Below, in pieces: positions 2,924 to 18,544 of a stretch of DNA of 24,000 nucleotides. A program made the position numbers and the translations under genes. Position 1 is the stretch's first letter. Each line of letters starts with the position of its first letter. The notes under the pieces are model-generated. The model worked only from the letters and a program-made list of their open reading frames with translations, was not told the DNA's origin and ran no database searches. Origin of the DNA: Acidimicrobiales bacterium (lineage in GTDB: Bacteria > Actinomycetota > Acidimicrobiia > Acidimicrobiales > RAAP-2); the NCBI GenBank assembly GCA_050743865.1, contig JBOGGE010000002.1, positions 18,152 to 42,151 of the forward strand. Direction: 5' to 3'.

Positions 2924-3184
2924 TCACGGTCGGTCGTGGCCAAGCAGGCTCGTGACCCGGGCCACGAGATCCCCGCCGGCGTCCGACGGCCTGTCCTCGC
3001 CGTCGACGACAGCCGCCCACGCCCGCAGGGTGCTTCCTGCTTGCGCACGGGCGGACGAGATCACGTCTGCGAGCTCATCGGTGTCGTACAGGGCCTTCAA
3101 CGAGCGACGGAGCCGTTCGAGGTCCTTTCCGCCAGATTTGGCCCCGATCACGTACCCGATCACCAATGCCAGAGTGATGCTCAC
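2924..3184 (-). CDS. Small protein (86 aa) with a hydrophobic N-terminus, YtxH-like at the N-terminus; paralogue of the 12296-12529 product
   Basis: This is the C-terminal 87 codons of the track ORF 2924..3946. GTG at 3184 overlaps the TGA of the upstream padR::yceI gene (GTGA). GGAGG at 3192-3196 (minus-strand sense) lies 7 nt upstream. Translation: MSITLALVIGYVIGAKSGGKDLERLRRSLKALYDTDELADVISSARAQ... The rest of the 340-aa track ORF overlaps the better-supported PadR::YceI frame. Confidence 0.6.
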   Translation of the reverse strand: MSITLALVIGYVIGAKSGGKDLERLRRSLKALYDTDELADVISSARAQAGSTLRAWAAVVDGEDRPSDAGGDLVARVTSLLGHDRP

Positions 3185-4233: not shown

Positions 4234-4453
4234 GGCACCCTCCCGGGCTGCTTGCGACCCCGTCCGGCCCCGCAGCCGATCGACCAACGCTACCCCTACC
4301 CCACTTCCCTGCCTCCCCATTCCAATTCACCCACTTCGTTGAGCCCGGACCTCTTGACGGTGTGAAAGACACTCATTTACAAGGGCAGCCGCGGGGCGTA
4401 GGACGCAGGGAGCCGCACATTTCGGCGCGGCACGCGATCGGGAGGTGGTTGTC
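4234..4453. promoter_or_regulatory. Divergent control region between padR::yceI and the hydrogenase operon
   Basis: This is a 220-bp intergenic gap between divergent starts. It contains an AT-rich island at 4354-4382 (TTGACGgtgtgaaagacactcatttacaa) with a GTGT-N5-ACAC dyad. It also holds an almost G-free pyrimidine tract at 4291-4337 with the 8-bp direct repeat CCCACTTC at 4300 and 4330. The hhyS SD GGGAGG is at 4439-4444. I could not pin down -10 elements. Confidence 0.4.
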
Positions 4454-5509
4454 GTGACGGTAACCGAGGCGCCGCCGGACGAAGCCGTCGTCCACGTGCT
4501 GTGGATCAACGCCGGGCTCAGCTGCGACGGGGATTCCGTCGCCCTCACCGCGGCGACCCAGCCGAGCATCGAGGAGATCGCCATGGGCGCGCTCCCTGGG
4601 CTTCCCAAGATCGCCGTGCACTGGCCGTTGATCGACTTCGAGTGCGGCCCGGTCGGGGGAACCGACGACTTCATCGAATGGTTCTTCCGGGCCGACCGGG
4701 GCGAGCTCGACCCGTTCGTCTTGGTGGTGGAGGGCTCGATCCCCAACGAGGCCATCAAGCGTGAGGGGTACTGGTGCGGGTTCGGCAACAATCCGGACAC
4801 CGACCAGCCCATGACGACGAGCGAGTGGCTCGATCGCCTGGCGCCGAAGGCGCTGGTGGTCCTGGCCGCCGGGACTTGCGCCTGCTATGGCGGCATTCAC
4901 GCCATGGCGGGTAACCCGACGGGCGCCATGGGCGTCCCCGACTATCTGGGGTGGGGCTGGAGGTCAAAGGCGGGCATCCCGATCGTGTGCGTCCCGGGCT
5001 GCCCCACCCACCCGGACAACCTCTCCGAGACGATCCTGTACCTGCTCTACCAGGCCACGGGGCAAGCACCGATGATCCCCCTCGACGACTCCCTGCGACC
5101 GCAGTGGTTGTTCGGCAGCACCGTGCACGAGGGCTGCGACCGAGCCGGCTACTACGAGCAGGGCGACTTCGCCAGCGAGTACGGCTCGCCCAAGTGCATT
5201 GTGAAGCTGGGGTGCTGGGGCCCGGTGGTCAAGTGCAATGTCCCCAAGAGGGGCTGGATCAACGGGGTGGGCGGCTGCCCGAACGTCGGTGGCATCTGCA
5301 TCGGCTGCACCATGCCGGGTTTCCCCGACAAGTTCATGCCGTTCATGGACGAACCGCCGGGCGCCCGGGTCTCGACGGTGGCCAGCGGCCTGTACGGCGG
5401 GGCCATCCGGGGACTGCGCCGGATCACCGCCCACACGCTCGAAGACGAGCCGAAGTGGCGCCTGCCGGGCAAAGAGCTGGTGACCGGGTACAAGGGAACG
5501 TGGAGGTAG
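4454..5509 (+). CDS. hhyS: [NiFe]-hydrogenase small subunit, group 1h/5 (Hhy-type), cytosolic with no Tat signal
   Basis: FeS-ligand pattern: LSCDGDS, GTCACYGG, VPGCPTHPD, HEGCDR, KCIVKLGCWGPVVKC, GGCPNVGGICIGCTMPGFPD. There is no RRxF twin-arginine leader. GTG 4454 lies 9 nt after GGGAGG (4439-4444). The track start GTG 4445 abuts the SD, so 4454 is preferred; the start is uncertain by 9 nt. Confidence 0.93.
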   Translation: MTVTEAPPDEAVVHVLWINAGLSCDGDSVALTAATQPSIEEIAMGALPGLPKIAVHWPLIDFECGPVGGTDDFIEWFFRADRGELDPFVLVVEGSIPNEAIKREGYWCGFGNNPDTDQPMTTSEWLDRLAPKALVVLAAGTCACYGGIHAMAGNPTGAMGVPDYLGWGWRSKAGIPIVCVPGCPTHPDNLSETILYLLYQATGQAPMIPLDDSLRPQWLFGSTVHEGCDRAGYYEQGDFASEYGSPKCIVKLGCWGPVVKCNVPKRGWINGVGGCPNVGGICIGCTMPGFPDKFMPFMDEPPGARVSTVASGLYGGAIRGLRRITAHTLEDEPKWRLPGKELVTGYKGTWR

Positions 5510-5513
5510 GACG

Positions 5514-7298
5514 GTGGCCAAAGCACTTACCGACAACGACACCGGCCTGGTGGAGATGGCCTGGGACCCCATCACCCGGATCGTGGGCAGCTTGGGGATC
5601 TACACCAAGATCGACTTCGGGAGAGGCAAGGTCGTCGAGTGCCACAGCACTTCGTCGATCTTTCGCGGCTACAGCGTCTTCATGAAGGGGAAGGACCCCC
5701 GGGACGCCCACTTCATCACCAGCCGGATCTGCGGCATCTGCGGCGACAACCACGCCACCTGCTCGTGCTACGCCCAGAACATGGCGTATGGCGTGCACCC
5801 GCCGGCGCTCGGCGAACAGATCGTCAACCTCGGCGAAGCGGCCGAGTACATGTTCGACCACAACATCTTCCAGGAGAACCTGGTCGGAGTGGACTTCTGC
5901 GAGAAGATGGTCGCCGAGACCAACCCCGGCGTGCTGGAGCAGGCCAACCGCACCGAGGCCCCGCACGCTGCCGACCACGGGTACAGAACGGTCGGCGACA
6001 TCATGCGCTCGCTCAACCCGTTCTCCGGCGAGTTCTACCGCGAGGCCCTGCAGGTGAGCCGCTCCACCCGGGAGATGTTCTGCCTCATGGAGGGCCGCCA
6101 CGTGCACCCCTCCACGCTGTATCCCGGCGGCGTCGGCACGACGGCCACCATCCAGCTGTTCACCGACTACTACACCCGGCTCATGCGCTACGTGGAGTTC
6201 ATGAAGCGGGTCGTACCGATGCACGACGACCTGTTCGACTTCTTCTACCAGGCGATGCCCGGGTACGAGGAGGTCGGCCGGCGCCGGGTGCTCCTCGGTT
6301 GTTGGGGCGCCTTCCAGGACCCGTCGGTGTGCAACTTCAACTACCGGGACATGACCACCTGGGGACGGGCCATGGGTGTGACGCCCGGGGTGGTTGTCGA
6401 CGGGAACCTCGTCACCAACGATCTGGTCGAGATCAACCTGGGCATCCGCATCCTGCTCGGCCACTCGTTCTACGGCGACTGGGGAGACCAGGAGATGTTC
6501 GTCACCCGCGACCCGCTCGGCAATCCTGTCGACCGCCGCCATCCGTGGAACCAGCACACCAACCCCGCGCCCCAGAAGCGAGACTTCGACGGCAACTACA
6601 GCTGGGTGATGGCTCCCCGCTGGTCTGACGGGAGCGATGATCTCGCCCTCGACACCGGCGGTGGTCCCCTGGCCCGCCTCTGGTCGACCGCGCTGTCCGG
6701 CCTGGTGAGCACCGACCACGTCAAGGCCACCGGCGACAGCGTGGTCATCAACCTGCCCAAGACGGCACTCAAGCCCGAAGTCAGCCTCGAATGGAAGATC
6801 CCGCGGTGGTCCAACACCATCGAGCGTGACCGGGCCCGTACCTACTTCCAGGCCTACGCGGCGGCGTCGGCTCTGGACTTCATCGAGAAGGCGTTGGCCG
6901 ACGTGCGGGCCGGCAGGACGAAGACCTGGGAGCCCTTCGAAGTTCCCGACGAGGCGATCGGCTGCGGGTTCACCGAGGCGGTCCGCGGCGTCCTGTCACA
7001 CCACATGGTGATAAAGGGCGGCAAGATCGCCAACTATCACCCCTACCCGCCGACGCCGTGGAACGCCAGCCCCCGCGACAGCAACGGCACGCCCGGCCCG
7101 TATGAGGATGCGGTCATCGACTCGCCCATCTTCGAGGAGAACGACCAGGAGCACTTCAAGGGCATCGACATCATGCGGTCGGTGCGGAGCTTCGATCCTT
7201 GCCTGCCGTGCGGCGTGCACATGTACCTCGGCAAGGGAAAGGTCCTGAAGAAGCTCCACTCGCCCACGCAGGTGGCGACTCCCGATCTCGCCTCCTGA
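5514..7298 (+). CDS. hhyL: [NiFe]-hydrogenase large subunit, group 1h/5 (Hhy-type)
   Basis: The N-terminal metal-ligand motif is TSRICGICGDNHATCS and the C-terminal motif is SFDPCLPCGVH. GTG 5514 is preceded by GGAGG at 5502-5506. A 25-residue tail after CGVH (MYLGKGKVLKKLHSPTQVATPDLAS, nt 7221-7295) matches the extension removed by the maturation endopeptidase. Confidence 0.95.
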   Translation: MAKALTDNDTGLVEMAWDPITRIVGSLGIYTKIDFGRGKVVECHSTSSIFRGYSVFMKGKDPRDAHFITSRICGICGDNHATCSCYAQNMAYGVHPPALGEQIVNLGEAAEYMFDHNIFQENLVGVDFCEKMVAETNPGVLEQANRTEAPHAADHGYRTVGDIMRSLNPFSGEFYREALQVSRSTREMFCLMEGRHVHPSTLYPGGVGTTATIQLFTDYYTRLMRYVEFMKRVVPMHDDLFDFFYQAMPGYEEVGRRRVLLGCWGAFQDPSVCNFNYRDMTTWGRAMGVTPGVVVDGNLVTNDLVEINLGIRILLGHSFYGDWGDQEMFVTRDPLGNPVDRRHPWNQHTNPAPQKRDFDGNYSWVMAPRWSDGSDDLALDTGGGPLARLWSTALSGLVSTDHVKATGDSVVINLPKTALKPEVSLEWKIPRWSNTIERDRARTYFQAYAAASALDFIEKALADVRAGRTKTWEPFEVPDEAIGCGFTEAVRGVLSHHMVIKGGKIANYHPYPPTPWNASPRDSNGTPGPYEDAVIDSPIFEENDQEHFKGIDIMRSVRSFDPCLPCGVHMYLGKGKVLKKLHSPTQVATPDLAS

Positions 7299-7313: not shown

Positions 7314-7877
7314 ATGCCCGCACCGCAGAACCTCCGAGCCACCGGTGACCGGATCGAGCAGTTGCTGGACGAGCTGCAGAGGGCGGCCAACCCGTCTTCG
7401 TTCCGCCTGGTCGAGGAGCTCTTGAAGCTGGTCACCGAGCTCTACGGTGCCGGGCTGGCGCGGATGATGTCGATGGTCACCGAGCACGCCCCCGATCTGG
7501 CCGAGGTGTGCGCGAAGGACGAGCTGGTGGCCAGCCTGCTCGTCGTGCATGGGCTGCACCCGGACCCAGTGGCCCGAAGGGTGGAGGGCGCCCTGGCCTC
7601 GGTTCGCCCGTTGCTCGCCGCACACGCCGGTGACGTGGAGCTCGTGGAGGTCGACGCCGATGCCGGCATCGTCCGTCTCCGGCTCCTCGGGAGCTGCGAC
7701 GGGTGCCCGTCGTCGGCCATCACCCTCCGGGGGGCTGTCGAGCGGTCGATCGCCGAAGCGGCACCTGAGATCGTCAGCGTCGAGGTTGACCAGCCATCCG
7801 GGGTGGCGTCGGTTCCCGTCGCCGTCGGCACCAAGCCGACGTACGCCGAGTGCCCGTCGGGAACGGCGAGCCGGTGA
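7314..7877 (+). CDS. hhyE: NifU C-terminal-domain (Nfu-like) FeS protein associated with group 1h hydrogenase
   Basis: The C-terminal half VRPLLAAHAGDVELVEVDADAGIVRLRLLGSCDGCPSSAITLRGAVERSI is a classic Nfu/NifU-C domain with a CxxC pair. It sits immediately after hhyL, the position of the putative FeS protein HhyE in mycobacterial Hhy loci. The symbol is assigned from memory of that literature. Confidence 0.75.
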   Translation: MPAPQNLRATGDRIEQLLDELQRAANPSSFRLVEELLKLVTELYGAGLARMMSMVTEHAPDLAEVCAKDELVASLLVVHGLHPDPVARRVEGALASVRPLLAAHAGDVELVEVDADAGIVRLRLLGSCDGCPSSAITLRGAVERSIAEAAPEIVSVEVDQPSGVASVPVAVGTKPTYAECPSGTASR

Positions 7878-8497
7878 GCGACCCGCTGGCCGTGCTCCAG
7901 CGCATCCGGCTGGCTCGCCCGAGCGAGGTGGTGCGAGCAGGGGAGCGTTGCCAGCTGTGCGCCGAGGAGATCCCCGACGTCCACGGCCATCTGGTCGACC
8001 TGCAGGCGCGCTCCCTGCTCTGCGCCTGCCGGGGCTGCTACCTGCTCTTCACCGCCGAGGGTGCCGGTGGCCCCCACTACCGGGCCGTTCCCGATCGGTA
8101 CCTCGCCTTTCCCGGCTTCCAGCTGTCCCCGGCGCAGTGGGACTCCCTCCAGATCCCGGTCAGCATCGCCTTCTTCTTCGTCAACTCCGCTCTCGGCCGG
8201 GTGGCGGCTTTCTACCCCGGTCCCGCCGGGGCCACCGAGTCCGAGCTCTCCCTCGACACCTGGGATGAGGTGGTATCGGCCAATCCCACGCTGGCCACGC
8301 TCGAACCCGACGTCGAGGCGTTCCTGGTCCAGGCTGACCCGGACCACGGCGCCCCGGAGTGCTTCCTGGTGCCCATCGACGCCTGCTACGAGCTGGTGGG
8401 GCGCCTCCGGAAGTCCTGGCGAGGGTTCGACGGCGGGCGAGAGGCCCACGACCAGTTGGACGCCTTCTTCGCCGGCGTGCGGAGCCGGGTCCGATGA
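7874..8497 (+). CDS. Conserved hydrogenase-cluster protein of unknown function with a Cys-rich motif
   Basis: GTG 7874 overlaps the upstream TGA (GTGA). ATG 7850 is an alternative start in the same frame. The five-Cys motif is CQLC-x19-CACRGC (ERCQLCAEEIPDVHGHLVDLQARSLLCACRGCYLLF). Coding bias is good. I recall proteins in this position being labelled DUF5947 / hhaA-like, but that is unverified. Confidence 0.8.
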   Translation: MSDPLAVLQRIRLARPSEVVRAGERCQLCAEEIPDVHGHLVDLQARSLLCACRGCYLLFTAEGAGGPHYRAVPDRYLAFPGFQLSPAQWDSLQIPVSIAFFFVNSALGRVAAFYPGPAGATESELSLDTWDEVVSANPTLATLEPDVEAFLVQADPDHGAPECFLVPIDACYELVGRLRKSWRGFDGGREAHDQLDAFFAGVRSRVR

Positions 8498-9132
8498 CCA
8501 CGCTCGGTTTCGAGGTCGTGGACGCTCGACCGGAACCGCACGCCGCGGTGCCCACCATCATGTTGCGATTGCGGATCACCGAGACCGGTGGTGGGGTGCA
8601 CGCGCTGGCCCTCCGCTGCCAGATCCGCATCGAGCCTCAGCGGCGACGTTACGACCCCGAAGAGAGAGGCCGGCTCTACGAGCTCTTCGGGGAGACCCCG
8701 CAGTGGGGCGACTCCCTGCACCCCTTCTTGTGGACTCATGTGTCGACGACGCTGCCGGGCTTCTCCGGTTCGACCGACGTGGAGATCCCGGTCGAGTGCA
8801 CCTACGACTTCGACGTTGCGGGAGCCAAGTACCTTCACGCCCTGTCCGGGGGCGAGATCCCGCTCCTCCTGCTCTTTTCGGGCACCGTGTTCGTCCAGGG
8901 CGAATCGGGCTTTGCCGCCGAGCCCGTCCCGTGGGACCAAGAGGCCTCCTACCGGATGCCGGTCTCGGTGTGGCGAGGCGTGATGGATCTGTACTTCCCC
9001 AACAGCGGCTGGGTCCGGATCGGCCGCGATACCCTCGACCGGCTCGGACGGTTCAGGGCATCGCGGGCCCTTCCCACCTGGGACCAGGCATTCGAGCAGC
9101 TGCTCAAGGAAGCCGGAGACGGGGCATGGTGA
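8494..9132 (+). CDS. Conserved hydrogenase-cluster protein of unknown function
   Basis: ATG 8494 overlaps the upstream stop (ATGA). Translation: MTTLGFEVVDARPEPHAAVPTIMLRLRITETGGGVHALALRCQIRIEPQRRRYDPEERGRLYELFG... I recognise no catalytic motif. I recall a DUF6084 / hhaB-like annotation for this position, unverified. Confidence 0.8.
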   Translation: MTTLGFEVVDARPEPHAAVPTIMLRLRITETGGGVHALALRCQIRIEPQRRRYDPEERGRLYELFGETPQWGDSLHPFLWTHVSTTLPGFSGSTDVEIPVECTYDFDVAGAKYLHALSGGEIPLLLLFSGTVFVQGESGFAAEPVPWDQEASYRMPVSVWRGVMDLYFPNSGWVRIGRDTLDRLGRFRASRALPTWDQAFEQLLKEAGDGAW

Positions 9133-10532
9133 GGGTCGAGCTCGCCGATCGTTTCGCCGCCGCCGGCGCCGTGGCCGAGACCGTGCTCTACGAGGGGTAC
9201 ATGCTGTACCCCTACCGGGCGTCCTCGAGTAAGAACCAGTTGCGCTGGCAGTTCGGGGTGCTGGTTCCCCGTGCCTTCAGCGAGGCCGACGGCTCCGAAC
9301 GCTGGTCGATGCGCACCGAGTGCCTCCTCGATCCCGGACCGGCACCGGTCCTGGCCGTCCGCATCCGTTGCCTTCAGGCCCAGCATCGGGGGATCGAGGC
9401 CGCCGCTGCCGCCTCCGACAACGGGTTCGTGCCGGTCGAGGCGATCGAGGTCGACGGGCGCCACCATGTCGCCTGGGACGAAGCGGTCGATCAGGTCGTC
9501 GACCTTCCCCTGCTGGCATTGCACAGCCTCGAGATCGCTGACCACAGCCACCCCTTCGGGTTCGCCGGTTCGCGGGAGACCGAGCTGATCCGGACGAGCG
9601 TGGGGCAGGTGGCCGGGCGTATCGTCCGCCGGCGGCTGGCGGTGGACGGGCGGGTGCGCGTGACGGTCGCTCGCCCGGACGCCGCAAGCCGCTTCGTGAA
9701 GGTGGCCGTCACCGTGGAGAACGCCAGCCCGTTCCTGGACGCCGGTGCCGGGCGCCGGGACGCGCTCGCCCGTTCGCTGATCGCCTCGCACACCATGGTG
9801 GCCGTGGAGGGCGGGGTGTTCGTGTCGCTGTTCGACCCCCCCGACGGTGCCCGACCGGCGGCGGCGGCCTGTCACAACGACGGCGCCTTCCCGGTGCTGG
9901 TCGGAGAGGACGACGTGGTCCTCTCGTCGCCCATCATCCTCTACGACCACCCTTCGGTCGCCCCTGAGAGCCCGGGCAACCTCTACGACGCCACCGAGAT
10001 CGACGAGATCCTGGCGTTGCGGGTGCTGGCGCTGACCGACGAAGAGAAAGCCGAGGCGCGCGGCACCGACGCCCGCGCCGCCGCCATCATCGACCGCTGC
10101 GACGACATGCCCCCCGAGGTGTGGAGCCGGCTCCACGGCGCAGTGCGCTCCCTGCGGTCGGCGGCGGAGCCGGGAGCCGCCGGCAGCGGGGTGGACGATC
10201 GTGAGGACCCCGGACCGGTTCCCTGGTGGGATCCGGTGGCTGACGCCTCCGTCGACCCGTGGGGCGACCGGGTCAGGGTCGGCGACGTCGAGATCGGGAA
10301 GGGCACGAGGGTGCTGCTCCGGCCGTCGCGGCGCTCGGACGCCCAGGACCTCTTCTTGGCGGGTCGTGCCGCCACCGTGGCCGGCGTCTTCACCGACGTC
10401 GACGGGAGCCAGCAGGTGGCGGTGACGGTCGACGACGACCCGGCGACGGCGGAGCTGATATGGCAGGGGCGCTACCTGTTCTTCCACCCCGACGAGGTGG
10501 AGCCGCTCCCCGGGGAGGACGGCCCCCGATGA
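9126..10532 (+). CDS. Conserved hydrogenase-cluster protein of unknown function (468 aa)
   Basis: ATG 9126 overlaps the upstream gene by 7 nt (ATGGTGA). Only the last 469 codons of the 823-aa track ORF are taken. Translation starts MVRVELADRFAAAGAVAETVLYEGYMLYPYRASSSKNQLRWQFGVLVP. There is no P-loop and no Cys cluster. It shares an IRCLQAQHR-type motif with the preceding protein. Confidence 0.8.
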   Translation: MVRVELADRFAAAGAVAETVLYEGYMLYPYRASSSKNQLRWQFGVLVPRAFSEADGSERWSMRTECLLDPGPAPVLAVRIRCLQAQHRGIEAAAAASDNGFVPVEAIEVDGRHHVAWDEAVDQVVDLPLLALHSLEIADHSHPFGFAGSRETELIRTSVGQVAGRIVRRRLAVDGRVRVTVARPDAASRFVKVAVTVENASPFLDAGAGRRDALARSLIASHTMVAVEGGVFVSLFDPPDGARPAAAACHNDGAFPVLVGEDDVVLSSPIILYDHPSVAPESPGNLYDATEIDEILALRVLALTDEEKAEARGTDARAAAIIDRCDDMPPEVWSRLHGAVRSLRSAAEPGAAGSGVDDREDPGPVPWWDPVADASVDPWGDRVRVGDVEIGKGTRVLLRPSRRSDAQDLFLAGRAATVAGVFTDVDGSQQVAVTVDDDPATAELIWQGRYLFFHPDEVEPLPGEDGPR

Positions 10533-11029
10533 GGCCCCGAGTTCTCGTCGCCGGCATCGGGAACATCTTCTTGAGCGACGACGGCTTCGGCGTCGAAGTC
10601 GTCAACCGCCTGAGCGAAGAGCCCCTTCCGCCAGGGGTCCGGGTTACTGACGTCGGGATCCGCGGCCTCCACCTGGCCTACGAGCTGCTCGACGGCTACG
10701 ACGCGGTGATCCTGGTCGACGCCGTGCCGATGGGCGAGGCACCGGGAACGGTGGCGGTCATCGAGCCCGACGACCTGATGGCGACGCCCGGGGACGAGGC
10801 CCCGGTCGTCGACGCCCACAGCATGAGCCCCGAGGCGGTGCTGGGCACCCTGACCCGATTGGGCGGCTCGGTCGAACGGCTTCGGGTGGTCGGTTGCCAG
10901 CCCGCCGACCTCGACGAGGGCATCGGCCTGTCACCGGCGGTCGCCGACGCCGTCGACGGCGCGGTGGCGTTGTGCCGGCAGCTCGTTGCCGAGATCACGG
11001 AACCCGCTGGAAAGGAGACAACGAGATGA
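10529..11029 (+). CDS. Hydrogenase maturation endopeptidase (HyaD/HybD/HupD family)
   Basis: ATG 10529 is an ATGA overlap. Family motifs are present: VLVAGIGNIFLSDDGFGVEVV, AVILVDAV, VVDAHSMSP. Confidence 0.9.
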   Translation: MRPRVLVAGIGNIFLSDDGFGVEVVNRLSEEPLPPGVRVTDVGIRGLHLAYELLDGYDAVILVDAVPMGEAPGTVAVIEPDDLMATPGDEAPVVDAHSMSPEAVLGTLTRLGGSVERLRVVGCQPADLDEGIGLSPAVADAVDGAVALCRQLVAEITEPAGKETTR

Positions 11030-11130
11030 TCATTCGTCTCGCCAAATCGGTGCTCGTCGCCCTGGTCGTCGGAATGGTGCTCAAGTCGCTGCCCGACATC
11101 GCCCGGTACCTCAAGATCAGGGAGATGTGA
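11026..11130 (+). CDS. 34-aa hydrophobic peptide (single predicted TM helix)
   Basis: ATG 11026 overlaps the protease stop (ATGA) and is preceded by AAAGGAGA at 11011-11018. Translation: MIIRLAKSVLVALVVGMVLKSLPDIARYLKIREM. Its stop overlaps the candidate GTG start of the next gene. It is short, so the coding call rests on the SD, the coupling and the hydrophobic core. Confidence 0.55.
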   Translation: MIIRLAKSVLVALVVGMVLKSLPDIARYLKIREM

Positions 11131-11651
11131 CCTGGGTGGCTCATTACCGCATCGACCCCACACGTTCGTACGTATGGATCGACGCCCGGTCCAGCGTGCA
11201 CCCCATCCATTCCACCACCAAGGGGCTGGAGGGCTACCTCGATCTCGGCCTGGGGCCGGACGGTGCCGTCGATCTGGCGGTCATGCCGACCGGAAAGCTC
11301 TCGCTGCAGGTCAGTCGCCTCTCGTCGGGTAACCGGCTGGAGGATCGTGAGCTGCAACGACGCATCGACTCGAAGCGGTTCCCCGCCATCGAAGGGGTGA
11401 TCATCGGGATGGAGCCGATCGGCGGTGACGGGAGCTACCGGGTGAGCGGTGACATCACCTTTCGGGGAACGTCTCACCGGTACGAGGACCAGATGACCGT
11501 CAACCCGGTCGACGACAGCACGATCAAGCTCGCCGGCCAGTCGCGTTTCGACATCCGCGATTTCGGGATGGAGCCGCCCCGCATCTTGATGCTGAAGGTC
11601 GACCCGGAGGTGGCCGTGCGAGTGGAGGTGCTCGCGGTGAAGGAAGGATAG
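11127..11651 (+). CDS. YceI-like protein without signal peptide; paralogue of the C-terminal domain of the PadR::YceI regulator
   Basis: Translation: YRIDPTRSYVWIDARSSVHP...LSLQVSRLSSGNRLEDRELQRRIDSKRFPAIEG...ITFRGTSHRYEDQM...RFDIRDFGMEPPRILMLKVDPEVAVRVEV. The start is either GTG 11127 (GTGA overlap) or GTG 11136. There is no N-terminal hydrophobic leader. Confidence 0.85.
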   Translation: MTWVAHYRIDPTRSYVWIDARSSVHPIHSTTKGLEGYLDLGLGPDGAVDLAVMPTGKLSLQVSRLSSGNRLEDRELQRRIDSKRFPAIEGVIIGMEPIGGDGSYRVSGDITFRGTSHRYEDQMTVNPVDDSTIKLAGQSRFDIRDFGMEPPRILMLKVDPEVAVRVEVLAVKEG

Positions 11652-11657
11652 GACCCC

Positions 11658-11993
11658 GTGCACGAGCTCGGTTTGTGCAGTTCGATCGTGGACGCCGTCC
11701 AGCGGCGAGCCGGGGAACGCCCGGTGGCGCACGTGCGGGTGCGCGTCGGGCGCCTGCACCACGTCCACCCCGATGCGTTCGACCAGTCCTTCGCCGTGGC
11801 CGCCATGGGCACGGTGGCCGAGGACGCGGTGGCAGAGCTGGTCCAGCTCCCGGTGCGGGCAGCGTGCAGCCACTGCTCGACCACGTGGGAGTGCGAGGAG
11901 CTGCCCCTGGCCTGCCCCACCTGCGGGTCCGTGGACATTGACCTGCTCGGTGGGGACGAACTGCTGCTCGAGTCCATCAAGTACCGCGGCTGA
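11658..11993 (+). CDS. hypA: Hydrogenase nickel-incorporation protein HypA
   Basis: The N-terminal MHE nickel-binding motif (MHELGLCSSIV) is present. The zinc site is CSHC...CPTC. Start is GTG 11658. Confidence 0.9.
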   Translation: MHELGLCSSIVDAVQRRAGERPVAHVRVRVGRLHHVHPDAFDQSFAVAAMGTVAEDAVAELVQLPVRAACSHCSTTWECEELPLACPTCGSVDIDLLGGDELLLESIKYRG

Positions 11994-12006
11994 GAGGAGA
12001 CGGACC

Positions 12007-12294
12007 ATGTGCCTCGGCATACCGGGCCAGTTGGTGGCGTTCGGCTCGCACGAGCATCTGGCGCGAGTCGACGTCTCGGGGGTGGCTCGGACAATCAACA
12101 TCGGGTTGCTCGACGACGAGAGGCTCCAGCTCGGCGACTGGGTTCTCATCCATGTCGGCTTCGCCATGTCGAAGATCGACGAGGAGGAGGCGGCGCTGGC
12201 CTTGGCCTCGCTCAAGCTCATGGGCCAGGCCTACGGAGCCGAGCTCGACGCGTTCTGGTCGTCCAGGATCACCAGTGACAGCACGGGAGGTTGA
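12007..12294 (+). CDS. hypC: Hydrogenase assembly chaperone HypC/HupF family
   Basis: Signature N-terminus MCLGIPGQLV with Cys2, followed by GDWVLIHVGFAMSKIDEEEA. GAGGAG lies upstream at 11994-11999. Confidence 0.9.
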   Translation: MCLGIPGQLVAFGSHEHLARVDVSGVARTINIGLLDDERLQLGDWVLIHVGFAMSKIDEEEAALALASLKLMGQAYGAELDAFWSSRITSDSTGG

Positions 12295-12295
12295 C

Positions 12296-12529
12296 ATGGG
12301 AACCATCGTCGGAGCCATGATCGGGTACGTGTTCGGCACGCAAGCCGGACCTCAGGGGTGGGACGACCTGCGCCGTGCCTGGGGGGTGATCAGCTCCTCC
12401 GAGGAGGTGAGGAACCTGATCGACCTCAGCTTCTCGATGGCCCATGGCCTCGTGGGGCGTGGGGGCGAGCTGCTCGCCGGGGCGGCCGGAACCTCGGAGT
12501 CCCGTTCCGCACTGCGACCGGTGGCGTAG
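12296..12529 (+). CDS. Small protein (77 aa) with a hydrophobic N-terminus; paralogue of the 2924-3184 product
   Basis: ATG 12296 is preceded by GGGAGG at 12285-12290. Translation: MGTIVGAMIGYVFGTQAGPQGWDDLRRAWGVISSSEEVRNLIDLSF... It shares the IGYV-G-x3-G-x6-LRR pattern with MSITLALVIGYVIGAKSGGKDLERLRRS at 2924-3184. Confidence 0.6.
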   Translation: MGTIVGAMIGYVFGTQAGPQGWDDLRRAWGVISSSEEVRNLIDLSFSMAHGLVGRGGELLAGAAGTSESRSALRPVA

Positions 12530-12536
12530 GCCGGCC

Positions 12537-13676
12537 ATGCGATTCGTGGACGAGTACCGCGACCCGGCGGCGGCGCAGGTGCAGGTGAGCCGGATCACCG
12601 ACCTGGCCGCCGGGGAAGAGTTCAAGTTCATGGAGGTGTGCGGCGGCCACACCCACACCATCTACCGGCACGGGATCGAGCATCTGGTGCCGGCCAACGT
12701 GGAGCTCGTGCACGGGCCGGGATGCCCGGTGTGCGTGATCCCGATGGGCAGGATCGACGACGCCATCTCGGTGGCAAAGGAACCGGGCGTGATCTTCACG
12801 TCCTTCGGCGACATGATGCGGGTGCCGGGAAGCCACGGCAACCTGCTCCACGCCAAGGCCGAGGGAGCTGACGTCCGCTTCGTGTACTCGCCGCTCGACG
12901 CGCTGCGGATCGCCGTGGAGAACCCCGAGCACCAGGTGGTCTTCTTCGCCGTCGGCTTCGAGACCACCGCCCCTTCCACCGCCATCGTGCTCGCACAGGC
13001 GCGAGCGCGCCGGATCACCAACTTCAGCGTCTTCTGCAACCACGTCATGATCGTCCCCCCGATCAAGGCGATCCTCGAGTCACCGGACCTCCGGCTGGAC
13101 GGGTTCCTCGGACCGGGGCACGTCTCGACGGTGATCGGCCAGCGGCCCTACCGCTTCGTCCCCGACCAGTACGGCAAGCCGCTGGTGACCGCCGGGTTCG
13201 AACCGCTCGACATACTCCAAGCCATCTCGATGCTCCTCGCCCAGATCAGGGAGGGACGGTGCGAGGTGGAGAACCAGTACTCGAGGGTGGTTCGTGAAGG
13301 GGGGAACCCGCGAGCCCTGGCCCTGCTGGGCGAGGTGTTCGAGCTGCGACCCCACTTCGAATGGCGCGGCCTCGGGTTCATCTCCCAGAGCGCGCTGAAA
13401 CTTCGACCGGAATTCGAGAGCTTCGACGCCGAGCTCCGCTACCAGCTGCCGGGGGTACGCGTGGCGGACCCGAAGGCGTGCCAGTGCGGCGAGGTCCTCA
13501 AGGGCGTCATCAAGCCCTGGGAGTGCAAGGTGTTCGGCACCGCCTGCACGCCGGAGACTCCCATCGGCACGTGCATGGTCTCGTCCGAGGGGGCGTGCGC
13601 CGCCTACTACAACTTCGGCCGAATGCACCGCGAGGCGGCAGTCGCCTTCGGCAGGAGGAGCCCGGTCAACGCATGA
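12537..13676 (+). CDS. hypD: Hydrogenase maturation FeS protein HypD
   Basis: Motifs: MRFVDEYRD, MEVCGGHTH, HGPGCPVCV, FFAVGFETTAP, and C-terminal cysteines (CQCG...C...C). Confidence 0.95.
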   Translation: MRFVDEYRDPAAAQVQVSRITDLAAGEEFKFMEVCGGHTHTIYRHGIEHLVPANVELVHGPGCPVCVIPMGRIDDAISVAKEPGVIFTSFGDMMRVPGSHGNLLHAKAEGADVRFVYSPLDALRIAVENPEHQVVFFAVGFETTAPSTAIVLAQARARRITNFSVFCNHVMIVPPIKAILESPDLRLDGFLGPGHVSTVIGQRPYRFVPDQYGKPLVTAGFEPLDILQAISMLLAQIREGRCEVENQYSRVVREGGNPRALALLGEVFELRPHFEWRGLGFISQSALKLRPEFESFDAELRYQLPGVRVADPKACQCGEVLKGVIKPWECKVFGTACTPETPIGTCMVSSEGACAAYYNFGRMHREAAVAFGRRSPVNA

Positions 13677-16051
13677 CGGCGTCGATCACCGACGGTGTGC
13701 CGGTCCGGCACCGGCTCCGGGTGACCGGAGTGGTCCAGGGAGTCGGCTTTCGTCCCTTCGTCCACTCGCTGGCCGGCCGGCTCGAGCTCGCCGGCCGCGT
13801 CGGCAACGACAGCGAAGGGGTGCTCGTCGAGGTCGAGGGTCCCGCCGGGGCCGTCGAACGCTTCGAGTCGCTGCTGGTCGACGAGGCACCACCCCTGGCC
13901 CGGATCGAAGCCGTCGAGTGCAGCGCGGTCGACCCGCTCTCCGAGCCCGGCTTCCGGATCGAGACCAGCCGGTCCACCGGAGCGGTCCGCACCTTCGTGT
14001 CGCCCGACGTCGCCGTGTGCGGCGAATGTCTGGCCGAGCTCTTTGCACCCGCCGACCGCCGGTACCGCTACCCGTTCATCAACTGCACCAACTGCGGACC
14101 GCGCTTTACCATCACCGTCAGGCTCCCCTACGACCGGCCCAACACGACCATGGCCGGCTTCCCGCTGTGCCCGGCGTGCGCCGCCGAGTACCAGGACCCG
14201 AGCGACCGCCGGTTCCACGCCCAGCCGGTCGCTTGCCAGATCTGCGGCCCCCACCTGTCCTTCGACGGGCCGACCGGGACGGTCGAAGGCACCGACGCCT
14301 CCATCGCCGCCACCCAGCACCTGCTGGGCCGGGGAGGCATCGTGGCGGTGAAGGGGCTCGGCGGCTACCACCTGGCCTGCGACGCCACCTCGGACGCCGG
14401 CGTCGACGAGCTCCGCCGCCGCAAGGCACGGACCGACAAGCCGTTCGCCGTGATGGTGGCCGACCTGGCCGCCGCCCGTCGCCTGGCCCACCTCGATCCC
14501 GCCGAGGAGATGGTCCTGGCCGGCGTCGAGCGCCCGATCGTGCTGCTGCGCCGGCGCGCCGAGAGCTGCCTGTCGCCCCTGGTGGCGCCGGGTAGTCCCT
14601 GGGTCGGGGTCCTCCTGGCCTACACCCCCGTCCACCACCTCCTCTTCCACGAGGTCCCGGGGGCCGGCTCCCCGGTCCCAGAGGTGCTGGTGATGACCAG
14701 CGGCAACCTGAGCGAGGAGCCGATCTGCTACGACGACGACGACGCCCGCCGGCGGCTCGGCAGCATCGCCGAGGGCTGGCTGGTCGGCAACCGGCCCATC
14801 CACGTGCCCTGCGACGACTCGGTGGTCCGGGTCGAGTCCGGGGTGGAGCTGCCCATCCGCCGCTCGAGGGGGTACGCACCTCTGCCGGTGCGTCTCCCCT
14901 TCCCCGCCGCCCCGCTGCTCGCCGTCGGAGGGGAGCTCAAGAACACCTTCTGCCTGGCTTCCGGCCGCGACGCCTGGATGAGCCAGCACCTCGGCGACAT
15001 GGGCAGCGTGGAGACCCTGACCGCGTTCGAGCGCTCCTGGCGGCAGTTCGCAGAGATCTACTGCATCGACCCGGTAGCCGCCGTCGCCGACACCCACCCT
15101 GGCTACCAGACCCGCCGGTGGGCCGAATCGGGCTCGGGCCGGCCGGCGGTGACCGTGCAGCACCACCACGCCCACATCGCCTCGGTGATGGCCGAGCATC
15201 AGATCCCCGAGGGAGAGCAGGTGATCGGGTACGCCTTCGACGGCACCGGCTACGGGACCGACGGGGCGATCTGGGGCGGGGAGGTGCTCGTCGCCGGCTA
15301 CGACCGGTTCGAACGGGCGACCCACCTCCGGTACGTCCCGTTGCCCGGCGGCGACGCCGCCGTCCGCAAGCCCTACCGGGCGGCTCTGTCCCACCTGCGG
15401 GCGGCCGGGATTGCCTGGAGCCGGGATCTGGCGCCGGTGGCCGCCGCCCCGCCCGGCGAGCTGGCGGCCCTCGAGCACCAACTCGAGCACAACGTGCGCT
15501 GCGTCCCCACCTCCAGCATGGGGCGGCTCTTCGACACCGTCAGTTCGCTCCTCGGTCTTCGCCAGGTCGTCTCCTACGAGGCCCAGGCGGCGATCGATCT
15601 CGAGACTGCGGCCGCCGCCCACACCGGTCCCGCCCCCGCCTACCGGTTCGGGATCGAGGGACGCGAGCTGGATCCGGCCGCCATGCTGGTGAGCATCGTC
15701 GGCGACCTCCGCGCCGGGTGCCCGACCGGCGCCATTGCCGCCGGCTTCCACCGAGCGGTGGCCGGACTGGTCGGGGAGACGGCTGAACGGGAACGCCGGC
15801 GCACGGGGATCAATCGGGTGGCACTCAGCGGCGGGGTGTTCCAAAACACGCTGGTGGTGCGACTGGTACGCGCCGAGCTGGCCCAGCGGGGCCTCGCCGT
15901 CCTCACCCACCGGGTCGTTCCCCCCAACGACGGCGGTCTCGCTCTCGGGCAGGCAGCGGTGGCCGCCAGTTCGATACGGGCGGCGGCGGCGCTGCGAACA
16001 GAGGCGTCGGCGGTGGCACCGACGTCGACGTCGACGTCGAAGGAGGCATAG
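13673..16051 (+). CDS. hypF: Carbamoyltransferase HypF
   Basis: ATG 13673 is an ATGA overlap. The acylphosphatase domain is RVTGVVQGVGFRPFV. There are two zinc-finger pairs (CGECLAEL...YPFINCTNCGPRFT and CPACAAEYQDPSDRRFHAQPVACQICGP). YrdC-like (VAVKGLGGYHLACDA) and Kae1-like C-terminal domains are present. Confidence 0.95.
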   Translation: MTASITDGVPVRHRLRVTGVVQGVGFRPFVHSLAGRLELAGRVGNDSEGVLVEVEGPAGAVERFESLLVDEAPPLARIEAVECSAVDPLSEPGFRIETSRSTGAVRTFVSPDVAVCGECLAELFAPADRRYRYPFINCTNCGPRFTITVRLPYDRPNTTMAGFPLCPACAAEYQDPSDRRFHAQPVACQICGPHLSFDGPTGTVEGTDASIAATQHLLGRGGIVAVKGLGGYHLACDATSDAGVDELRRRKARTDKPFAVMVADLAAARRLAHLDPAEEMVLAGVERPIVLLRRRAESCLSPLVAPGSPWVGVLLAYTPVHHLLFHEVPGAGSPVPEVLVMTSGNLSEEPICYDDDDARRRLGSIAEGWLVGNRPIHVPCDDSVVRVESGVELPIRRSRGYAPLPVRLPFPAAPLLAVGGELKNTFCLASGRDAWMSQHLGDMGSVETLTAFERSWRQFAEIYCIDPVAAVADTHPGYQTRRWAESGSGRPAVTVQHHHAHIASVMAEHQIPEGEQVIGYAFDGTGYGTDGAIWGGEVLVAGYDRFERATHLRYVPLPGGDAAVRKPYRAALSHLRAAGIAWSRDLAPVAAAPPGELAALEHQLEHNVRCVPTSSMGRLFDTVSSLLGLRQVVSYEAQAAIDLETAAAAHTGPAPAYRFGIEGRELDPAAMLVSIVGDLRAGCPTGAIAAGFHRAVAGLVGETAERERRRTGINRVALSGGVFQNTLVVRLVRAELAQRGLAVLTHRVVPPNDGGLALGQAAVAASSIRAAAALRTEASAVAPTSTSTSKEA

Positions 16052-16779
16052 TGGCAACGATCGATCTCTCCCCGCCCGCCGGGGATGTCGCCCCGGCCGA
16101 GGACCTGGCAGTCACGGCCCTGGCGCTGGCCCGCCGGTTCGCCGCCGGCGCCACCATGTGGTGCGTGGCCCCCCGATGGCCGGCCCACGCCCGTCATCTG
16201 GCCGTCGAGTTCGTCCACCCGGTCATCATGGGGAAGCGGGCACTGCCCGCCATCCACCTCGACGGGCCCGACCCGGCCGACGGGCTGCGCCAGCTGGCCC
16301 GGGCGGGCGACGTTCTCGCCGCGGTCGGCATCGCCGACGATGCCCGTATCGCCGCTCTCATGCGCCGTTCCGAGGCCTGGGGCCTCACCCGGCTGTGGCT
16401 GGGAGCGGGCCCCCGGCCGCCGTCGGGGTTGGCCGAGCACGTCGTGTGGGCAGAGAGCGCGGACCCCACCGTCGCCGTCCGCTCGGGCGACGTCGTCATG
16501 CTCTACCACCTCCTCTGGGAGCTGACCCACGTGGTCTTCGAGCACCCCGGCCTCCTGGAGGAAGAGCCGTCCTGCACGGACGACGTGTGCACCACGTGCT
16601 CCGACGAGGGCCGGGTGGCAGAAGTGCGATCGGCCGACGGGGCCGGACGGGCCGAAGTGATAGCCGCAGGGAAGCTCGAGACGGTCGACGTCAGCCTCGT
16701 CGACCCGGTTCGGCCCGGAGACCTGCTGTTGGTCCACGCCGGCGTGGCCCTGACCTCGCTGGGCGACGGCGAGCCATGA
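16051..16779 (+). CDS. Fusion protein: degenerate SIS-like N-terminal domain + HypC/HupF-like C-terminal domain
   Basis: GTG 16051 shares one nt with the hypF TAG stop. AGGAGG lies at 16041-16046. The N-terminal half parallels the next gene's SIS fold (GATMWCVAPRW... vs GGRLFAFGNGGS...; GDVLAAVGIADDARIAALMRRSEAWGL vs GDIALGISTSGNSANLLRAFDESSRRGL) but has lost the GNGGS and STSGNS motifs. The C-terminal ~75 aa, CTDDVCTTCSDEGRVAEV...VDVSLVDPVRPGDLLLVHAGVALTSL, aligns with HypC (MCLGIPGQLV...GDWVLIHVGFAMSKI). Confidence 0.8.
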   Translation: MATIDLSPPAGDVAPAEDLAVTALALARRFAAGATMWCVAPRWPAHARHLAVEFVHPVIMGKRALPAIHLDGPDPADGLRQLARAGDVLAAVGIADDARIAALMRRSEAWGLTRLWLGAGPRPPSGLAEHVVWAESADPTVAVRSGDVVMLYHLLWELTHVVFEHPGLLEEEPSCTDDVCTTCSDEGRVAEVRSADGAGRAEVIAAGKLETVDVSLVDPVRPGDLLLVHAGVALTSLGDGEP

Positions 16780-17435
16780 CGGCCGAGCCAACCGGCTTCC
16801 TCTACCCGTTCATCGAGTCCGAGGAGCGGGACGCACCGGGCCTGGTCGCCGACCTCGCCCGATCGGCTCGGGCCAAGATGGACACCAGCCGAGCCCTCCG
16901 TGCGGCGACCATCGAGGCGTGCGCCGGCGTCGTGCACCGGGCGGGATCTGCCATGGCTGACCGGTTCCGGCAGGGAGGCAGGCTCTTCGCCTTCGGCAAC
17001 GGGGGGAGCGCAACCGACGCCGAGGGGATCGTCGATCTCTTCCTTCGCCCACCGGACGGGAGGCCGTTGCCGGCGATGTCCCTCGCCGAGGACCTTGCCG
17101 TGCTCACCGCCCTTGGCAACGACGTCGGCTTCGAGTTGGTCTTCTCGCGCCAGATCATCGCCCATGCCCGACCGGGTGACATCGCTCTCGGCATTTCCAC
17201 CAGCGGCAACTCGGCCAACCTGCTGCGGGCGTTCGACGAGTCGTCGCGGCGGGGCCTGCTGACGGCGGGGCTTGCCGGCTACGACGGGGGGTCGATGGCC
17301 TCGAGCCTCGCCGTCCACCACTGCCTGGTGGTCCGCTCCGACAGTGTGCACCGGATCCAAGAGGCCCAGAACGCCCTGGCGTTGCAGCTCTGGTCAGTCA
17401 TCCAGCACGACCTCGACGAAGGGGGCACGACATGA
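16776..17435 (+). CDS. SIS-domain protein (GmhA / phosphoheptose-isomerase-like)
   Basis: ATG 16776 is an ATGA overlap. Motifs: GGRLFAFGNGGSATDAEG, LGNDVGFELVFSRQ, GDIALGISTSGNSANLLRA, LAGYDGG. Confidence 0.85.
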   Translation: MTAEPTGFLYPFIESEERDAPGLVADLARSARAKMDTSRALRAATIEACAGVVHRAGSAMADRFRQGGRLFAFGNGGSATDAEGIVDLFLRPPDGRPLPAMSLAEDLAVLTALGNDVGFELVFSRQIIAHARPGDIALGISTSGNSANLLRAFDESSRRGLLTAGLAGYDGGSMASSLAVHHCLVVRSDSVHRIQEAQNALALQLWSVIQHDLDEGGTT

Positions 17436-18544
17436 CCGACACCGCCCGGAGGAACAGCCCGGCCGACGCCGCGGGAAAGGAGGCCGCGGTGTTGGACCGG
17501 ATCGAGGCATTCCGCCGGCGGCGGCCTCGCTTGACCGACGACGTCGTCACCCTGGCCCACGGAGCGGGCGGCAAGGCGTCGGCGGCCCTGCTCGACGCGA
17601 TCTTCCTTCCCGCATTCGCCGACGGTGCGCCGTCCGTGCAGACCGACGCAGCAGTGGTCACGCTCCCCGGGGGCGACCGGCTGGCCTTCAGCACCGACTC
17701 GTTCGTAGTGAAGCCGCTGCGCTTCCCGGGGGGATCAGCCGGTCACCTCGCCGTCCACGGCACCGTCAACGACCTGGCCATGATGGGCGCCCACCCACTG
17801 GCCCTCTCTGCCGCCTTCGTGCTGGAGGAAGGGTTGCCGATGAACGACCTGCGAGGGATCGTGGCCGACATGGCAGAGGCAGCGGCCGGGGCAGCGGTCT
17901 CCATCGTCACCGGTGACACCAAAGTGGTCGATCGGGGCGCCGCCGACGGGATGTACATCTCGACCGCCGGGGTGGGGATCGTCCCGGCGGGGCGGGAGCT
18001 GTCAGCGGCTCGGGTCGCCGCCGGCGACGTCGTCATCTCCTCGGGGATGATCGGGGACCACGGGATGGCGGTCATGCTGGCCCGGGGTGACCTGGCCCTC
18101 GACGCCGACATCACGTCCGATACGGCGCCGCTGCACGAGTTGATGGAGCGCCTCCTGGGGGCCGCCCCGTCCACCCGCTGGCTGCGCGACGCCACCCGGG
18201 GTGGGGTCGGGACGGTCTGCAACGAGCTGGCACGGGACAGCAACCTCACGGTCGTGCTGGACGAGGCGGCCCTCCCGGTCCGTCCGGCGGTGGCGGCGGC
18301 ATGCGAGTTGCTGGGCCTCGACCCGCTCTACGCCGCCAACGAGGGAAAGTTCGTGGCCGTGGTGGCGCCGGCAGAGGAGGGTGCGGCCCTCGCCGCGCTC
18401 CGACGCCATCCGTTGGGTGGCGACGCCGCCCGCATCGGCCGGATCGACGCCGAGCCGCCGGGCATCGTCGTGCTCGTCACCCCGATCGGTGGCACCCGGA
18501 TCGTCGACATGCTGGTCGGCGACCCGTTGCCGCGGATTTGCTGA
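17432..18544 (+). CDS. hypE: Hydrogenase maturation carbamoyl dehydratase HypE
   Basis: ATG 17432 is an ATGA overlap. It has the AIR-synthase-like fold (LAHGAGGKAS, HLAVHGTVNDLAMMGA). The protein ends in the diagnostic PRIC terminus. Confidence 0.95.
   Translation: MTDTARRNSPADAAGKEAAVLDRIEAFRRRRPRLTDDVVTLAHGAGGKASAALLDAIFLPAFADGAPSVQTDAAVVTLPGGDRLAFSTDSFVVKPLRFPGGSAGHLAVHGTVNDLAMMGAHPLALSAAFVLEEGLPMNDLRGIVADMAEAAAGAAVSIVTGDTKVVDRGAADGMYISTAGVGIVPAGRELSAARVAAGDVVISSGMIGDHGMAVMLARGDLALDADITSDTAPLHELMERLLGAAPSTRWLRDATRGGVGTVCNELARDSNLTVVLDEAALPVRPAVAAACELLGLDPLYAANEGKFVAVVAPAEEGAALAALRRHPLGGDAARIGRIDAEPPGIVVLVTPIGGTRIVDMLVGDPLPRIC

Follow-up and report, generated by a model that had tools for sequence, protein, structure and literature searches.

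The main biological sink of atmospheric H2 is attributed to a set of enzymes that includes the group 1h [NiFe]-hydrogenases (Hhy) (Cordero 2019, Islam 2019). In Mycobacterium smegmatis, Hhy was recovered only from the membrane fraction, where it withstands 5% cholate, although it has no predicted membrane segment and no known anchor (Cordero 2019). The enzyme lacks a cytochrome b subunit; what has been established about its connection to the respiratory chain is that HhyE is required (Islam 2019). The way in which group 1h hydrogenases are switched on, the way in which they are held at the membrane and their access to quinone are three unsolved points of these enzymes. In the group 2a hydrogenase Huc of M. 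smegmatis, the connection from the enzyme to the membrane is made by HucM, a tetrameric alpha-helical hydrophobic tube (PMC10017518). Structures of YceI proteins, a family of bacterial lipocalins, usually carry octaprenyl compounds or ubiquinone-8; BcnA of Burkholderia cenocepacia has a very high affinity for menaquinone and alpha-tocopherol, and one proposal is that the linked cytochrome b561 of the BcnA-LcoA system redox-cycles the quinone in the barrel (PMC5350466, PMC9113575). Here, we analysed a stretch of 24,000 nucleotides (nt) from the genome of an Acidimicrobiales bacterium (assembly GCA_050743865.1, contig JBOGGE010000002.1, positions 18,152–42,151; hereafter, the window), in which a 34-codon gene and a gene for a YceI-like protein lie next to each other in an hhy operon, between the endopeptidase gene hupD and hypA.

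The original prediction for this locus, made from the sequence alone, held that the two products form a dedicated two-part module that serves as a quinone shuttle or tether for the hydrogenase, by analogy with Huc. It took group 1h hydrogenases to be cytosolic, which fails for the M. smegmatis enzyme (Cordero 2019), and it correctly treated the route of Hhy to the quinone pool as an open question (Islam 2019). Our analysis supports the conclusion that both genes are real and conserved and are probably co-transcribed, and the predicted barrel has the fold of isoprenoid and quinone binders; the idea of a dedicated two-part module was not supported. The hhy operon contains two separate things side by side, namely, a core microprotein of the DUF6893 family and a lineage-specific YceI addition.

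Gene borders, fold and subfamily of the YceI-like protein

The 34-codon open reading frame (ORF) runs from ATG 11026 to TGA 11128–11130 on the + strand and encodes MIIRLAKSVLVALVVGMVLKSLPDIARYLKIREM. Its ATG shares the sequence ATGA with the stop codon of hupD (10529–11029, +), which encodes a hupD/hycI-type group 1h maturation endopeptidase (71 bits to PF01750 and 137 bits to TIGR00072). A Shine-Dalgarno sequence, AAGGAG (11011–11016, +), is located 9 nt 5' of the ATG. The ORF thus has its own ribosome-binding sequence, as originally predicted. The YceI frame that follows has two GTG starts, one at 11127 that overlaps the peptide stop codon (ATGTGA) and one at 11136, 5 nt past the stop. GTG 11136 appears to be the likelier start, because the homologues are almost all 171 amino acids (aa) long and begin with M-x-R-Y-R-I. 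Both genes and their coupling are confirmed as originally described. A longer YceI frame starting from TTG 10986, which would have room for a leader, was ruled out by the length of the homologues and by the frame switch in third-position GC content, which falls exactly at the borders of the peptide and YceI genes; the YceI-like protein therefore has no N-terminal leader. No promoter-like sites or + strand terminator-like sites were found in the region 10300–12400.

The YceI-like protein (11136–11651, +), encoded immediately before hypA (11658–11993, +; 93.9 bits to PF01155), matches PF04264 with 42.3 bits over profile positions 1–148 of 150 (Pfam cut-off, 23.7 bits). It has >1191 homologues, and among the 120 best listed a length of approximately 171 aa is nearly universal. 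A model generated with AlphaFold2 (AF2) from a 38-sequence alignment (predicted local distance difference test score, pLDDT, 90.6; predicted template modelling score, pTM, 0.81) is an all-beta barrel that begins at residue 2. In a Foldseek comparison of this model with the PDB, the best 21 matches were all YceI lipocalins (template modelling (TM) scores of 0.68–0.81). The top match was the polyisoprenoid-binding protein TT1927b (1WUB; E value 5e-12, TM score 0.79), followed by BcnA/BcnB and Escherichia coli YceI. No hydrophobic N-terminal region was found in the protein, the maximum Kyte-Doolittle mean over 19 residues being 1.37 and located in a C-terminal strand, and the N-terminal signal peptide that is typical of classical exported YceI proteins is missing. 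Reading frame, homologue length, AF2 model and hydropathy are in agreement here, and bear out the originally predicted leaderless barrel. A missing leader is nothing unusual here: the genome also encodes two canonical YceI paralogues (Pfam scores of 169 and 139 bits), and these are likewise leaderless, with the barrel starting at the beginning of the protein.

The protein, which is predicted to be cytoplasmic, falls into a distinct YceI subfamily. It shows approximately 22% identity to a canonical copy of the same genome versus 35–36% to the C-terminal domain of a PadR::YceI fusion regulator, which is its closest paralogue and is encoded in the same locus, divergently from hhyS (3181–4320, −; Pfam matches to both PadR and YceI). 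A maximum-likelihood tree placed the PadR-fused domains together with the standalone hhy-linked proteins in one clade, which was split from the canonical copies with 100/100 support. A scan of 1.84 billion representative proteins yielded 188 clusters (50% identity) at E ≤ 1e-30, most of which consist of proteins of approximately 170 aa that were matched from residue 1. Several cluster proteins of 353–380 aa carry the YceI domain at the C-terminus, and the one that was scanned (P0168) is a PadR fusion. In addition, a metagenomic representative of 628 aa (P0228) contains a SpoIIE/PP2C phosphatase domain (residues 223–407) fused to an hhy-type YceI domain (residues 459–622), which is a second kind of signalling output on the YceI domain, after PadR. 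Because both PadR and SpoIIE fusions carry it, the hhy-type YceI domain is repeatedly used as a cytoplasmic input module of signalling proteins. An HPxH motif (H22 and H25) is near-invariant in the standalone hhy-type YceI proteins, including those of three other genomes that carry the gene (G059, G267 and G325), and the PadR-fused domains do not contain it. This motif could be a contact to a metal or to a head group.

The window protein shares the 8-stranded extended beta-barrel and the Pfam YceI domain with the solved YceI lipocalins (TT1927b of Thermus thermophilus, 1WUB; E. coli YceI, 1Y0G; BcnA/BcnB, 5IXH/5IXG; HP1286, 3HPE), which it matches in Foldseek with E values of 5e-12 to 1e-6. 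However, it is 12–20% identical to them in sequence, and the profile-to-PDB sequence matches are marginal (E value 4e-4). It also differs from them in being encoded in a hydrogenase/hyp operon, in having the HPxH motif in a loop and in belonging to a clade separate from the canonical copies of its own genome. The BcnA-LcoA system of B. cenocepacia is similar in that a YceI lipocalin has a genetic link to a partner with a redox or respiratory function. BcnA is, however, exported and has a membrane cytochrome b561 as its partner, whereas the window protein is predicted to be cytoplasmic and has [NiFe]-hydrogenase and maturation genes, and no cytochrome b, as its neighbours. The likeness to HucM is a possible functional analogy only, that of a non-catalytic protein, encoded in the operon, through which a soluble hydrogenase reaches the menaquinone of the membrane (PMC10017518). 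In contrast to the alpha-helical tetrameric tube, the AF2 model of the window protein is an all-beta barrel of monomer size; no homology between the two was detected, and the YceI-like protein is absent from most group 1h loci. The YceI barrel represents a known fold in a new setting, in a new form that is confined to certain lineages. We found no paper that links YceI to group 1h hydrogenases, and no NCBIfam model matches either the YceI-like protein or the 34-aa peptide.

DUF6893 in group 1h loci and its pairing with the YceI-like gene

The 34-aa peptide (11026–11130, +) is a member of DUF6893 (PF21833; 39.2 bits, with a Pfam cut-off of 24.6 bits) and is encoded by a single-copy gene in the genome of the window. 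It consists of a hydrophobic helix, followed by a basic tail, SLPDIARYLKIREM, with a terminal Met. The tail has the pattern P-D-x-x-R-Y-L-K-x-R-x-M-COOH; xDxxRYxxxRxM-stop is common to the window copy and to the copy of plasmid pHG1 of Cupriavidus necator, and each of 16 diverse DUF6893 copies that were aligned has R27, Y28 and the C-terminal M34. The terminal Met is present in 205 of 207 copies, whichever stop codon follows. The length is nearly fixed, at 34 aa in the short-helix 'type A' (65 of 66 copies), to which the window peptide belongs, and at 39 aa in the long type (101 of 107 copies). The ratio of non-synonymous to synonymous changes (pN/pS) is 0.34 for type A and 0.50 for the long type. 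The ORF is thus conserved and under coding constraint in homologous loci, in line with the original prediction. The Kyte-Doolittle mean over 19 residues of the peptide is 2.26, and its uncharged run comprises only 12 residues (K7 to K20), which is short for a membrane span. The corresponding runs contain 15–16 residues in other short forms and 24 residues in the 39-aa forms; the mycobacterial copies have 39 aa and a hydrophobic run of 24 residues, and the window peptide has Lys residues at positions 7 and 20. A profile search of the PDB with DUF6893 matched no credible chain, and therefore no solved complex contains DUF6893; no paper mentioning the family was found.

As to the stop codons of the DUF6893 copies (loci L009–L198), TAG was used in 111, TGA in 61 and TAA in 33, a share of TAG and TAA that is unusual for high-GC genomes, although many of the copies come from related genomes.

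The distribution of DUF6893 was examined in a sample of 401 Actinomycetota genomes, in which a full-strength match to an uncharacterised 468-aa protein (u468; 9126–10532, + in the window) served as the marker of hhy loci (36 genomes). DUF6893 was present in 37 of the 401 genomes and in 33 of the 36 u468-bearing genomes. In 28 of the 29 loci fetched from this phylum, hupD is located within 1.5 kb of DUF6893. The usual gene order is u468-hupD-DUF6893-hypA-hypC-hypD, and some lineages have the order u468-DUF6893-hupD; all of the 80 fetched hhy loci of Mycobacterium and Mycolicibacterium contain a 39-aa DUF6893 between u468 and hupD. On pHG1 of C. necator H16, an unannotated gap of 165 nt from the protease gene to hypF holds a 33-aa copy, MKGFLKYLVLPALVVALLANIKDIRRYIRIRSM (38.9 bits), which resembles the window peptide in family, in its position beside hupD and in its tail. 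This ORF (L198, 14645–14743) is missing from the PLSDB gene table of the record and was found through an ORF listing of the gap between the protease gene and hypF; a tblastn search of plasmids with the window peptide matched only an Embleya replicon and missed the pHG1 copy. DUF6893 is thus a catalogued, uncharacterised core element of group 1h loci, and it is the only membrane-like element conserved in hhy loci. Because Hhy of M. smegmatis is membrane-bound yet without a predicted membrane segment, DUF6893 is an obvious candidate for an anchor or assembly factor of Hhy.

The standalone hhy-linked YceI gene was found in 4 of the 36 hhy genomes, which belong to four families: the genome of the window (G000, 93% complete), G059, G267 and G325. 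DUF6893 occurs without YceI in 26 of the 29 sampled loci of the phylum, in all 80 Mycobacterium loci and on pHG1 of C. necator. A scan of species-representative genomes identified 296 genomes that encode a relative of the YceI-like protein, and the best 80 were almost all Acidimicrobiales metagenome-assembled genomes from soil, peat and bog. In 68 of the best 80 loci, DUF6893 is located ≤400 nt upstream of YceI, in the arrangement hupD-DUF6893(x1-2)-YceI-hyp; 38 of these contain one DUF6893 copy and 30 contain two tandem copies between hupD and YceI. The tandem pairs (L042, L044, L048 and L050, among others) consist of a 34-aa type A, in which a 15-residue hydrophobic run is flanked by RR and K, and a 39-aa long-helix type B with a mycobacterial-like 24-residue run. 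The window carries the short form only. The gap between the peptide and YceI genes is ≤10 nt in about half of the loci and up to 135 nt in the rest. In the remaining loci (10–12 of the 80), no DUF6893 adjoins YceI: some of them have YceI at the head of hypC-(u77)-hypD-hypF-hypE with only hupD remnants upstream, and four of the deviating YceI genes are located outside any hydrogenase context.

The peptide and the YceI-like protein are thus a conserved pair only within a lineage; its conservation, which had been proposed as a check across group 1h loci, holds for the 68 Acidimicrobiales loci, but not for most other hhy loci. The simplest reading is that the YceI gene was inserted at the boundary of the hupD-DUF6893 block and the hyp block, and therefore its adjacency to the peptide gene reflects position rather than a two-part machine.

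In L038, L043, L053 and L109, YceI and hypC-hypD-hypF-hypE have been kept, hupD is fragmented or missing, and neither hhyS nor hhyL is present within 6 kb. In L053, the standalone YceI gene directly follows a divergent PadR::YceI gene. These loci may represent decaying or rearranged hhy loci, or assembly artefacts.

A second small gene in the window, encoding a 77-aa protein with a glycine-zipper-like N-terminus (u77; 12296–12529, +), follows the distribution of YceI. It was found in 57 of 83 YceI-positive loci and in none of 106 YceI-negative loci, counts that provide a lead rather than a statistic because the genomes are related, and it directly follows YceI in G059 and G325. In addition, u77 is weakly paralogous to an 86-aa small protein (2924–3184, −) whose gene is translationally coupled to PadR::YceI (BLASTP E value 2e-6 over the N-terminal 35 residues), and a module composed of a YceI domain and a small glycine-zipper-like protein seems to occur twice in the locus. 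If YceI has a functional partner, u77 is thus a stronger candidate than DUF6893. The fusion regulator itself is confined to Acidimicrobiales loci; G059 and G325 contain the standalone YceI gene and no fusion in the regions fetched. The paralogy to the sensor domain of the regulator and the co-distribution with u77 are the strongest functional leads for the YceI-like protein.

Possible roles of the two proteins

We favour, with moderate confidence, the explanation that the YceI-like protein is a soluble cytoplasmic holder or buffer of the isoprenoid ligand that is sensed by PadR::YceI, and that it thereby ties the operon to the quinone pool. The protein would bind a hydrophobic isoprenoid, most probably menaquinone/menaquinol, and the holding of this ligand may link hhy expression, and possibly also electron output, to the pool. 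The YceI gene would be an Acidimicrobiales-centred addition that entered the operon where the hupD-DUF6893 block meets the hyp genes. DUF6893, with its one hydrophobic helix, would be located most likely in or on the membrane, and its basic cytoplasmic tail may dock Hhy or an assembly partner.

Several points weigh against this explanation. Most group 1h systems do not contain the YceI gene, and therefore YceI is no general component of electron output. Where hhyS and hhyL are not nearby, YceI stays linked to hypC-hypD-hypF-hypE, and the HPxH motif that is near-invariant in the standalone proteins is absent from the domain of the regulator; both the hyp linkage and the motif fit a role in maturation or metal handling equally well. 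The window peptide has only 12 uncharged residues, from K7 to K20, and the C. necator enzyme, whose locus contains DUF6893, has been purified as a soluble protein. The ligand, the localisation and the interactions of both proteins are predicted from sequences and models, and the genomes that share these features are relatives, so that the counts overstate independence.

It is possible, if unlikely, that the YceI-like protein is instead a maturation or assembly factor, such as a chaperone or metal helper that works with HupD, HypA or HypC, and not a physiologically relevant lipid binder. As a hydrogenase-linked gene, YceI is always located in the hupD/hyp block and not beside hhyS, hhyL or hhyE; it heads hypC-(u77)-hypD-hypF-hypE where the structural genes are not nearby; and the near-invariant HPxH of the standalone forms, as well as the failure to find hypB over the cut-off in all four YceI-positive hhy genomes, points in the same direction. 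The latter link is weak, because hypB is also missing from the YceI-negative genomes G021 and G116, and the use of the same domain as a sensor module in the PadR and SpoIIE fusions points to small-molecule binding. Furthermore, we know of no YceI protein that handles metals. A role closer to the original prediction, in which the peptide anchors the barrel at the membrane and the two jointly do for Hhy what HucM does for Huc, taking menaquinone out of the membrane and passing it to the enzyme, also appears unlikely. The modelled fold is that of quinone and isoprenoid binders, the two genes are adjacent in the 68 Acidimicrobiales loci, with gaps of ≤10 nt in about half of them, and Hhy has no cytochrome b subunit through which it would reach quinone (Islam 2019). 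However, DUF6893 is found mostly without YceI and beside varied genes (hypA, hupD and hypF), YceI lacks an adjacent DUF6893 in 10–12 of the 80 loci, and loci with both genes often have another DUF6893 copy, or as many as 135 nt, between the two. Together with the structural difference between a beta-barrel and the helical tube of HucM, these findings leave a Huc-like quinone conduit formed with the peptide unsupported as a dedicated module.

A BcnA-like antioxidant or toxin sequesterer, which would be co-expressed with the O2-exposed hydrogenase in starvation and act against lipid peroxidation, is very unlikely. There is a precedent in BcnA/LcoA, as YceI lipocalins quench lipid peroxyl radicals through the bound quinone (PMC9113575), and an orthologue outside hydrogenase loci (L102) lies beside a possible catalase gene, according to an unverified reading by eye. 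However, the known systems are periplasmic or secreted and are paired with a cytochrome b561, which is absent here, and the tight linkage to hyp and hhy genes and the dedicated regulator would be left unexplained. The 34-codon ORF, being very short, with translational overlaps at both ends and an invariant last codon before the stop that is reminiscent of arrest peptides, could also be regarded as an upstream ORF or leader peptide that regulates the gene after it, rather than as the gene of a functional protein. We consider this extremely improbable and rejected it: the sequence, length and tail are conserved across phyla, while the stop codon, the spacing and the gene that comes next (YceI, hypA, hupD or hypF) differ from locus to locus, and the conservation is therefore at the protein level. 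The pN/pS values of <1 and the existence of tandem paralogues also argue against such a role. Finally, the elements might form an Acidimicrobiales quinone-coupling kit, a non-homologous counterpart of HucM, in which PadR::YceI reads the menaquinone/menaquinol state to switch the operon and the standalone barrel, with u77 and DUF6893, carries menaquinone from the membrane to the Hhy/HhyE exit; we regard this extended scheme as quite unlikely.

The window adds to this picture a YceI subfamily, predicted to be cytoplasmic, that recurs both as the sensor domain of PadR and SpoIIE fusion proteins and, in Acidimicrobiales that are abundant in soil, as a separate protein of the operon. The identity of the YceI ligand would give the first handle on the signal that controls atmospheric H2 oxidation in Acidimicrobiales, and would reveal whether respiratory enzymes of the cytoplasm can be served by soluble lipocalins.

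Layout of the hhy locus

The contig of the window is actinobacterial, with a GC content of 71%, and holds a complete group 1h locus. Pfam matches identified the genes for both subunits, hhyS (4445–5509, +) and hhyL (5514–7298, +), followed by those for the NifU-like HhyE homologue (7314–7877, +), DUF5947 (7850–8497, +) and DUF6084 (8494–9132, +), a combination that is characteristic of group 1h loci; u468 and hupD come next. A PAS protein is encoded at 2028–2813 (+). The genes that follow hypA on the + strand are hypC (12007–12294), u77, hypD (12537–13676), hypF (13673–16051), a HypC-like fusion (16051–16779) and hypE (17432–18544).

The absence of hypB was considered as a correlate of YceI, and the link is weak. 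No match to TIGR00073 over the cut-off was found in any of the four YceI-positive hhy genomes (G000, G059, G267 and G325), but hypB was likewise not found in two of five YceI-negative hhy genomes (G021 and G116); in G009, G069 and G054, it adjoins hhy. A SIS accessory gene appears in the annotation of two relatives, L006 and L007, and in that of pHG1. The large subunit shows 77% identity to the copy of C. necator pHG1 and 82% identity to a Mycobacterium plasmid copy, and the gene order of the window agrees with that of the hydrogenase locus of pHG1.

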